Shown here in pieces: positions 24,565 through 25,161 of a DNA stretch of 44,592 nt. This DNA comes from Escherichia phage BEK1-1. The stretch is from sequence record MN158212.1. The stretch is one strand, 5' to 3'. Each line of letters starts with the position of its first letter. Positions within the stretch are counted from its first letter, which is position 1. The notes below the pieces were generated by a model. That model had not been told where the DNA came from and made no database searches. It was given only the letters and a program-made list of their open reading frames with translations. The position numbers and the translations under genes are program-made.

Positions 24565-24590
24565 TTGAGGTCAGATTATACCATATTACA
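24565..24590 (-). promoter_or_regulatory. TATAAT -10 element upstream of the small-terminase gene
   Basis: Reverse complement reads ...GTAATATGGTATAATCTGACC... just downstream of a terminator. Confidence 0.35.
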
Positions 24591-24593
24591 TAC

Positions 24594-24618
24594 GAAAAAA
24601 AGCCCTCAAGCGAGGGCT
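24594..24618 (-). terminator. intrinsic terminator between the early small gene and the terminase genes
   Basis: Minus strand GCCCTC-GCTT-GAGGGC followed by TTTTTTTCG. Confidence 0.7.
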
Positions 24619-24860: not shown

Positions 24861-24938
24861 TGGCGCTCCGCACTGGATTCGAACCAGTAACCTACGACTT
24901 AGAAGGTCGTTGCTACTATCCTATTGAGCTAGCAGAGC
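24861..24938 (-). tRNA. tRNA-Arg (anticodon UCU)
   Basis: Minus strand reads GCTCTGC...TAGCTCAATAGGATAG...ACGACCTTCTAAGTCGT...CTGGTTCGAATCCAG...GCGGAGC-G-CCA; acceptor stem pairs 7/7 (one G-U); anticodon loop CT-TCT-AA; T-loop GGTTCGAATCC. Confidence 0.85.
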
Positions 24939-25161
24939 CTTGAATGAGTCCCGGTTACGGCTCCGGGGCTGCCTGATACAGCCGATTAATCTGCCTATTT
25001 GCGCTAGGTCTTAATGCCGCATGCGCTACTTAATGAGCAGCGGACTTAGTAGTTGCGCTCCGTGCGCCGTTACCACTTGGTGGTCTCGTTTGTCTACGAA
25101 ATTAATATTAGATACTTCCACTCAGAGATGCAAGTCCTTTTTAACAATTGCGGTCTGACTG

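Follow-up and report, generated by a model that had tools for sequence, protein, structure and literature searches.

Leader RNAs by which phages reprogram host transcription are textbook knowledge and few kinds have been described, i.e., nut, put and the qut site of the Q system. From phage T4 the stable species 1 and 2 RNAs of the transfer RNA (tRNA) cluster are known, as well as the PeSL elements, which consist of an early promoter plus a stem-loop and are present in multiple copies; boundary sequences at mosaic junctions are known from lambdoid phages. The HK022 put RNA has about 70 nucleotides (nt), two long stem-loops and a triplex in stem I, and it alone confers on the host RNA polymerase a resistance to terminators that lie many kb further on (PMC9378689). 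Put works in cis through the zinc-binding domain of the beta' subunit and requires no phage protein. From the pR' leader of Stx phages a small RNA, StxS, is derived (PMC7547250). In Stx phage 933W the order of elements is Q, pR', terminators, ileZ-argN-argO and stx2. Here, we analyze a locus of Escherichia phage BEK1-1 (MN158212.1; the complete stretch of 44,592 nt is called the window) in which a tRNA-Arg(UCU) gene is preceded by the minus-strand stretch 24939-25161. A preliminary description had proposed that this DNA may encode a second, degenerate tRNA, a small RNA or the processing context of the tRNA. The analysis strongly supports that 24939-25161 comprises the control region and the 5' leader of a small minus-strand transcription unit; the leader terminates in a two-hairpin module. 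Very probably, the region is a promoter with a conserved structured leader behind which a tRNA was inserted later, and not the remnant of a tRNA.

The window represents an Rtp-like E. coli phage (Drexlerviridae, Braunvirinae) with the local genes on the minus strand. Around the locus sequence matches to DTL, Rtp, EC3a and the Veterinaerplatzvirus group have 86-94% identity.

Promoter and structured leader

A sigma-70 promoter at 25133-25105 (Table 1) is made convincing by comparison. Both hexamers are nearly invariant across the Braunvirinae. The -10 hexamer reads TATAAT in ACG-M12 and JulesPiccard, TACATT in ES, and TATCTT in 50EP and KOX1. In ES the whole promoter has been replaced at the same spot by TTGACA-17-TACATT, i.e., by a version closer to consensus. 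At the equivalent position 50EP, ISF001, F115, HazelMika, tonn, aaroes, pSf-1 and KOX1 carry TTGAC(A/G/C)-17-TAnnnT. In each relative compared, 7 nt separate the -10 hexamer from a conserved start of the GUAGAC type, and the start consensus (C)GU(A/U)NACANA(A/C)GAG is kept across Drexlerviridae genera though the remaining leader has diverged. Hexamers, spacing, the 7-nt gap and the conserved start thus place the transcript start probably near 25097, and the conserved start would constitute the first 13 nt of the transcript (window 25097-25085). A generic promoter scan missed this promoter because its -35 hexamer, TTGCAT, matches TTGACA at 3 of 6 positions only.

Counted from this presumed start, the leader would measure about 159 nt (about 25097-24939, minus strand). 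It does not code for a protein. ORFs (open reading frames) within 24939..25161 are all short, 31-45 amino acids (aa), and relatives display insertions and deletions of 4 to >100 nt across the stretch. Therefore, no reading frame is conserved, and the absence of a gene claimed in the preliminary description is borne out.

For a comparison of structure, 18 distinct Braunvirinae leaders were aligned and the 5' 86 nt were folded with RNAalifold. A fold common to these sequences emerges with three helices: Ha, which is extended by two outer pairs, Hb, and Hd, inside which a further small helix is formed. In the helices 98.8% of the cells are paired and 23 cells carry changes on both sides. The covariation score was reached by none of 500 shuffles, and sliding the partners against each other destroys the pairing. 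In Ha four of the five pairs have changed on both sides (ACCAC/GUGGU, GCCAC/GUGGC, CCAUC/GAUGG, GCUAG/CUAGC). Hb is invariant in the aligned leaders and thus neutral as to covariation. Hd is paired in all 18 sequences, including a change from G-C to A-U and one position which is U.G, C-G or U-A; the U.G would not pair if the opposite strand were the RNA. The stretch enclosed by Hd, UGCUCAUUAAGUA, is highly conserved and invariant in most Braunvirinae; part of it is paired, and outside the Braunvirinae the Drexlerviridae genera do not conserve it. We take it to resemble the boxA of rrn operons (UGCUCUUUAACAA).

Downstream of this 5' domain the relatives possess optional hairpins and large insertions; ES has none, and its 5' domain is joined straight to the terminal module. 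The hairpin CCUA-GCGCAAA-UAGG of the window is absent in ES, replaced in TR2 and offers no covariation to test. Large insertions flank it in Rtp, AugustePiccard, JulesPiccard and OzMSK. A search of 5,426 complete E. coli genomes yielded no match to the leader.

Single-sequence folding of the region is marginal (z = -1.97 for the minus strand, -0.75 for the plus strand). The claim of a more-than-chance structure is founded on the comparative evidence and not on single-sequence folding. The two GC-rich inverted repeats to which attention had been drawn are present in the sequence, and CCCGGAGCCGTAACCGGG (24967-24950, minus) is conserved and covaries in >100 sequences. The long repeat GCGCTACTTAA...TTAGTAGTTGCGC finds no comparative support. 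Aligned as a helix it is 87% paired, which is equaled by 223 of 500 shuffles, and it competes with the supported helices; it was discarded.

Table 1. Features of the locus; all positions are those of the window.
Feature	Position	Strand	Basis
A/T-rich tract aattgttaaaaag upstream of the -35 hexamer	25149-25137	minus	seen in sequence
-35 hexamer TTGCAT	25128..25133	minus	seen in sequence; almost invariant in Braunvirinae
-10 hexamer TAATAT, 17-nt spacing from -35	25105..25110	minus	comparison with relatives
Presumed transcript start and conserved 5' single strand GUAGACAAACGAG	25085..25097	minus	cross-genus conservation
Helix Ha, ACCAC-CAA-GUGGU (25084-25072) plus two outer C-G/G-C pairs	25068..25088	minus	covariation
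Helix Hb, GCGC-ACGGA-GCGC	25055..25067	minus	RNAalifold prediction
Helix Hd, G.CCGC...GCGGC, enclosing UGCUCAUUAAGUA (25039-25027)	25016..25045	minus	covariation
Hairpin CCUA-GCGCAAA-UAGG	24994..25008	minus	conserved in most Braunvirinae
Two-hairpin module	24945..24989	minus	covariance model R1
Module hairpin h1, GCUGU-AUCAG-GCAGC	24982-24968	minus	comparative structure
Module hairpin h2, CCCGG-AGCCGUAA-CCGGG	24967-24950	minus	comparative structure
11-nt G-poor spacer ACUCAUUCAAG between module and tRNA	24939..24949	minus	flank comparison
tRNA-Arg, anticodon UCU, CCA encoded	24861..24938	minus	ARAGORN; Rfam tRNA model
Ribosome-binding site AAGGAG and 60-aa ORF	24857-24852; 24845-24663	minus	ORF list; phrog_2919, function unknown
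Intrinsic terminator AGCCCUCGCUUGAGGGCU followed by U7, closing the unit	24594..24618	minus	terminator scan
Candidate extended -10 promoter TGGTATAAT	24575..24583	minus	seen in sequence only

The terminal two-hairpin module

The module comprises 45 nt, UUAAUC-G-(GCUGU AUCAG GCAGC)-(CCCGG AGCCGUAA CCGGG)-ACUCA. As a motif we define a hairpin h1 of 4-7 base pairs (bp) with a variable loop and an abutting hairpin h2 of 5 bp with the loop A-N-N-C-G-U-A-A, preceded by C-G at the 5' side and followed by A at the 3' side. The covariance model R1 built for the motif recognizes the module with 56.1 bits (E 1.7e-15) as the sole copy in the 44.6-kb window. Over 50 diverse sequences the structure is 95.6% paired and none of 500 shuffles does as well. 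In this set h1 exhibits exchanges of CG and UA at two pairs, h2 exchanges of GC and CG as well as of CG and UA. Several features are conserved though they were not imposed by the search pattern: a C two bases ahead of h1 (48/50), an A after h2 (42/50), and the avoidance of U at the third loop position. The minimum-energy fold is identical to the comparative structure, and the module on its own folds as predicted in three unrelated members.

Among the module sequences 18 G.U pairs stand against 5 A.C, and in every context examined it lies on the strand of the adjacent gene identified by homology. This excess of G.U and the constant orientation indicate an RNA rather than a DNA element. It is not an intrinsic terminator of the usual kind: h2 is followed by ACUCAUUCAAG and not by a U-tract, and the terminator scan reports none there; a U-tract succeeds the hairpin in a few prophage copies, e.g., at the loci L112 and L042. 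The 3' flank is G-poor in 116 contexts, it starts with A in 92 of these and is often of the type ..AUUC... Rfam 15 contains no such family; eight prophage loci gave nothing at the gathering score, and L039 gave terminator-type matches only. When the leader of the window was compared with Rfam 15 a 12.8-bit chance match on the wrong strand and nothing else was returned. The conserved end of the h2 loop (loop at 24962-24955), ..C-G-U-A-A on a 5-bp stem, resembles the anticodon stem-loop of tRNA-Tyr (CUGUAAA). Some anticodon nucleases attack tRNA-Tyr.

A first exact-match scan with the module core retrieved two high-GC viral contigs which lack a tRNA. The viral contigs were then scanned with a degenerate pattern in which the 3' strand of h2 was left unspecified. 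It matched 105 contigs, nearly all of which pair in the unspecified strand. Applied to 185,579 species genomes, this pattern had 113 matches, of which 30 pass the pairing test and 83 fail; the latter include a coding sequence common to several phyla. When a contaminant contig and two or three questionable cases are set aside, about 28 genome copies remain that look genuine. The carriers among the genomes are mainly Pseudomonas, Comamonas, Delftia, Massilia and Chromobacterium; viral contigs and genomes alike belong mostly to high-GC beta- and gammaproteobacteria. In both collections the module was found in phage and prophage-like DNA only; the matches which are not phage-like failed the structure test. 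Scanning the viral contigs with a loop-free pattern produced mostly chance matches and, among the matches listed, only a few variants with single-base changes in the loop.

JulesPiccard has two modules in tandem (positions 1089-1133 and 1159-1202 of its stretch); of these the second carries AAUCAUAA as its loop, and its h1 resembles that of the high-GC prophage copies. A contig of the sulfate reducer Nitratidesulfovibrio liaohensis XJ01 (NODE_2) contains sequence similar to the E. coli phage IME542, and in INPHARED the sequences of PP134917, filed as a 'Pseudomonas' phage, and of several entries named 'Campylobacter phage' are those of E. coli Drexlerviridae. Mislabeled hosts or contamination are the likely reason.

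The genomic contexts are diverse, and in unrelated prophages no tRNA is nearby. In one prophage group a gene matching the Pfam Q antiterminator family ends about 290 nt ahead of the module, and HNH/terminase genes come directly after it. The module of other groups precedes genes for a lysozyme or amidase, from which an intrinsic terminator separates it. Further copies are located before or after the gene of the major head protein, after a RecE-like gene, after RecT or after an SSB-like gene. No protein was found that is common to the Drexlerviridae and the module-bearing prophage loci, and BLAST of the prophage contexts against isolated phages gave no match. A link to the 60-aa ORF downstream of the tRNA was considered and dropped as its family is absent from these loci. 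The idea that the module is the 3' domain of a larger prophage RNA was abandoned as well: in one group coding sequence reaches within 16 nt of it, and the upstream regions differ between groups.

One and the same module sequence has differing neighbor sequences to its left and right in different prophages and, thus, marks mosaic junctions. One might then think of a site in DNA, either a recombination boundary or a palindrome for packaging, replication or protein binding, the more so as the module is near the terminase genes in Drexlerviridae. We consider this very improbable. The module consists of two separate hairpins, one with an asymmetric conserved loop, which is not a symmetric palindrome; many contexts are far from packaging genes; the orientation always follows the genes; and the prevalent G.U pairs and the retained U.G of helix Hd would fail to pair in DNA or on the opposite strand.

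The position of the module between genes, often 12-35 nt past a stop codon or 20-30 nt ahead of a start codon, would also suit an element of RNA processing or stability. Its two stacked hairpins would label or protect an RNA end, as they could block exonucleases or guide RNase E to an AU-rich, G-poor stretch downstream and set differing half-lives along a polycistronic RNA; here it would mark the leader end of the tRNA precursor, from the 5' end of which it is 11 nt away. The G-poor 3' flank and the proximity to highly expressed genes (capsid, SSB-like, lysis) agree with such a role. Yet a plain stabilizer requires neither an invariant 8-nt loop nor a conserved flanking C and A. Nor would one expect a confinement to phage and prophage-like DNA, or a single copy instead of copies at many gene junctions: the model finds one in the window and one in T1, the two complete genomes scanned, and as a rule one per prophage locus. 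A processing or stability function is unlikely in our view.

The leader and its tRNA slot

In the direction of transcription the order of the locus is small early-type ORFs, an 84-aa ORF (end 25162), the non-coding stretch, the tRNA, the 60-aa ORF, a terminator, and the genes of the small and large terminase subunits. The tRNA-Arg(UCU) and its neighborhood stand as initially described. ARAGORN finds it as the single tRNA in the whole window (anticodon TCT, 24861-24938, minus) and the Rfam tRNA model scores 57.1 bits (E 3.5e-11). The ribosome-binding site of the small ORF, said to be within 10 nt of the tRNA 3' end, begins 4 nt past the CCA. In the long ORFs of the phage AGA accounts for 11.6 per 1000 codons and 23% of the Arg codons. 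In E. coli the norm is several times lower. Thus, the rare-codon reasoning for this tRNA holds.

The 60-aa ORF matches phrog_2919 (PHROGs, E 1.9e-28) and has homologues in 789 phage records across the Drexlerviridae. The terminator at 24618-24594 is annotated at the equivalent place in EC3a and MM01. Directly after it, 24 nt before the start codon of the small terminase gene (gene from 24551), a candidate extended -10 element TGGTATAAT is present; the packaging genes may have a promoter of their own there (24583-24575). In DTL (positions 1762-1839 of its stretch) and Rtp (1091-1167) ARAGORN finds a tRNA-Arg which is not annotated in the GenBank records. A published comparison describes both phages as lacking it (PMC8421802). 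In future annotations the tRNA-Arg of Rtp and DTL should be added and the leader should be kept free of ORF calls.

Is the stretch 24939-25161 the residue of a further tRNA? Such genes exist in some relatives at this locus, where tRNAs have been swapped repeatedly. Between tRNA-Arg and the 60-aa ORF, PCEc3, EC3a and BEK6 possess a second tRNA-like gene; its anticodon is UAU (Ile, AUA codon). In PCEc3 (positions 1765-1863 of its stretch, minus) it comprises 99 nt with a long variable arm, is recognized by Rfam with 39.4 bits and was missed by ARAGORN. A tRNA-Ile with a long arm is unusual. This gene is absent from the window, and in the relatives it is located on the downstream side of tRNA-Arg, outside the leader. 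Within 24939-25161 neither ARAGORN nor the Rfam tRNA model detects a tRNA on either strand; searching the 171-nt stretch alone against Rfam at E up to 10 returned no tRNA and no other relevant family, and no tmRNA (transfer-messenger RNA) was found in the non-coding stretch. The segment GCGCTCCGTGCGCC, taken earlier for a likeness of a tRNA 3' half, is the 4-bp hairpin GCGC-ACGGA-GCGC of the minus strand. Beyond this short GC hairpin, Hb, nothing in the fold recalls a tRNA, as the supported helices make no cloverleaf. Further, the leader is also present in phages which never had a tRNA at the site. A degenerate tRNA or a tRNA-like remnant is, accordingly, hardly credible.

The distribution among genera shows a leader which is older than the tRNA. 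Promoter and leader were found in every Drexlerviridae genus checked; common to all are the promoter, the 5' start, hairpin A, AACG and hairpin B. With the exception of KOX1 (Webervirus), all checked genera end in a GC-rich hairpin with CCGUAA(G) in the loop. The conserved leader precedes small genes upstream of the terminase. 50EP, T1, ISF001, F115 and KOX1 have no tRNA at the site, and all of them but KOX1 have the two-hairpin module there. In 50EP (Nouzillyvirus) it has the variant CCGG-ACUCCGUAA-CCGG and a ribosome-binding site and ORF follow directly. The h2 variants of T1 and ISF001 (GCCGC-AGACCCGUAA-GCGGC) and of F115 (GCGGG-AACCGUAA-CCCGC) are compensated; they are outside the search pattern and were found by the model. 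In the Tempevirinae (tonn, aaroes, pSf-1) CCGUAAG belongs to the loop of a hairpin with 9 bp, behind which U6 follows, i.e., the element is terminator-like.

Where a tRNA is present its identity varies. T145P1 and BEK2 have a different tRNA-Arg(UCU) behind the same leader, TR2 and ES a tRNA-Arg(CCU), and HazelMika has a tRNA-Ser directly after its module copy. Hence the slot after the module harbors three different tRNA-Arg genes and a tRNA-Ser, and the leader is more conserved than the tRNA behind it. Since T1, ISF001 and 50EP have promoter and leader in front of protein genes and no tRNA, the leader does not exist for the sake of the tRNA, and the tRNA must be a later insertion. Judged by these sequence comparisons, the tRNA is cargo placed in the Braunvirinae between the last module of an old leader and the first ORF, and the slot was filled several times independently. 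The earlier suggestion of a small RNA or a tRNA processing context is correct insofar as the region is a structured 5' leader which would be co-transcribed with the tRNA; a dedication to the tRNA does not hold. A slot which captured at least four tRNAs in different lineages is informative about how phages acquire tRNAs.

Possible function and comparison with known systems

We propose that the leader, above all its terminal module, would be a cis-acting RNA signal. Once made, the module would fold and influence termination factors or the host RNA polymerase engaged in transcription. Transcripts from the promoter would then not be cut short in the long untranslated leader and would continue into the terminator-rich late block. 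The tRNA would reside in a highly transcribed untranslated slot, and its release by RNase P would leave a free structured leader RNA of about 160 nt.

The single-copy module is positioned at the head of the packaging and structural, i.e., late, block. Co-oriented intrinsic terminators in the window number 5 upstream and 15 downstream of it. In T1 the corresponding figures are 1 and 25, and the GenBank entry of T1 annotates 12 or more. In the late block of the window (minus, 24618 to ~5116) strong co-oriented terminators start at about 24618, 22449, 17793, 17453, 15137, 14111, 10708, 8584 and 5135; those of T1 span 8322-29628. Over all contexts a terminator follows within 160 nt of the module in 17%, compared with 6% of control positions. 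To our knowledge, neither an antiterminator protein nor a phage-encoded RNA polymerase is known from the T1 family. The single copy, the site at the head of the late block, the abundance of terminators therein, the U6 hairpin of the Tempevirinae and the vicinity of a Q gene in one prophage group are pointers from which elongation control is our best guess.

Several observations weigh against elongation control. In 83% of the contexts no terminator is nearby, and the window module has no U-tract behind it. At the high-GC prophage loci co-oriented terminators are less dense downstream than upstream (0.27 vs 0.53 per kb), so that terminator counts as a test of antitermination are supportive in Drexlerviridae and contrary in high-GC prophages. 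As an extended -10 element seems to be available to the small terminase gene itself, read-through is not obviously required. Copies are present inside early or recombination operons and beside capsid genes, and where a Q protein exists an RNA antiterminator would be redundant. The boxA-like stretch is confined to the Braunvirinae. Start site, co-transcription and the effect on termination are all deduced.

Lastly, a conserved loop on variable stems suits a protein-binding site equally well; it is, in fact, the classic signature of a hairpin recognized by a protein. The module might be an operator for a phage regulator of the boxB/N or MS2-operator kind, or the leader, freed by RNase P, a small RNA or a decoy which ties up a host factor such as a defense nuclease. 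The frequent position about 10 nt before a ribosome-binding site, the duplication in JulesPiccard, the conservation of the leader beyond that of the tRNA and the likeness of the h2 loop (..YGUAA) to the anticodon loop of tRNA-Tyr would go along with this. Yet a target was not identified, and Drexlerviridae and module-bearing prophages share no protein that we could find, the family of the 60-aa ORF being absent from the latter. We regard a binding site for a protein or RNA as quite unlikely.

Returning to elongation control, the complete explanation, i.e., the identity of the unit together with this role, is tentative and somewhat short of an even chance. That leader or module operate by a mechanism of the put or nut kind is possible, on the doubtful side. 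We are still more hesitant about the particular version in which the module is a protein-independent processive antiterminator or anti-Rho RNA, unrelated to put and far more widespread. If true, it would explain how the T1 family transcribes a late block with a dozen or more intrinsic terminators and why the module is at the head of operons in many beta- and gammaproteobacterial prophages.

The literature searched on Drexlerviridae tRNAs, T1 transcription and antitermination RNAs contains no description of the leader or the module, and a literature search by sequence string had only a chance match inside EF-Tu genes. Among the known systems HK022 put is comparable as both are phage-encoded and have two stem-loops in a leader downstream of a promoter; an action in cis, as established for put, would here be a proposal by analogy. 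The differences are substantial. Put has about 70 nt, long stems and a triplex, whereas the module has 45 nt, a pair of stems with 5 bp each and a conserved loop of 8 nt. The sequences show no relation which might indicate homology, and a scan of the HK022 genome with the module core gave no match near PL or PR within 2 mismatches.

Lambda nut sites and rrn leaders are similar in that a short conserved single strand and a hairpin with a conserved loop are combined in a leader RNA, and the G-poor flanks of the module recall the arrangement of rut and boxB. In contrast to boxB, module and leader have no GNRA-like pentaloop. Their loops are of 7-8 nt (GCGCAAA, AGCCGUAA) and an N-like protein was not identified. 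The boxA-like UGCUCAUUAAGUA differs from its counterparts by being partly paired and by its lack of conservation outside the Braunvirinae.

The layout of the locus has its closest parallel in 933W, where tRNAs for rare Arg (and Ile) codons are likewise located in an untranslated stretch between a late-type promoter with leader and the late genes. The window has the same late-leader arrangement, i.e., promoter, leader, tRNA-Arg(UCU), ORF, terminator and small terminase gene, and its relatives pair Arg(UCU) with Ile(UAU). Unlike the window, 933W employs a Q protein and a qut site, has a separate promoter for the tRNAs, and lacks the module in its late leader.

StxS and the stable RNAs of T4 are also short structured RNAs from a phage leader or a tRNA cluster, possibly with a role of their own. 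StxS ends at a terminator and binds Hfq, whereas the 3' end of the leader discussed here would be generated by RNase P. T4 PeSL elements and lambdoid boundary sequences resemble the module as short conserved intergenic elements between otherwise unrelated gene modules; different from PeSL, the module occurs singly and does not include a promoter. The motif itself is short, easily synthesized and strongly covarying, and it is common to T1, to therapeutic-type E. coli and Klebsiella phages (Drexlerviridae) and to prophages of Pseudomonas, Comamonas, Delftia, Massilia and others. We consider it a candidate for a new class of regulatory RNA. The leader as such is best filed under a known kind, phage cis-acting leader RNA, with a motif that is missing from Rfam 15.

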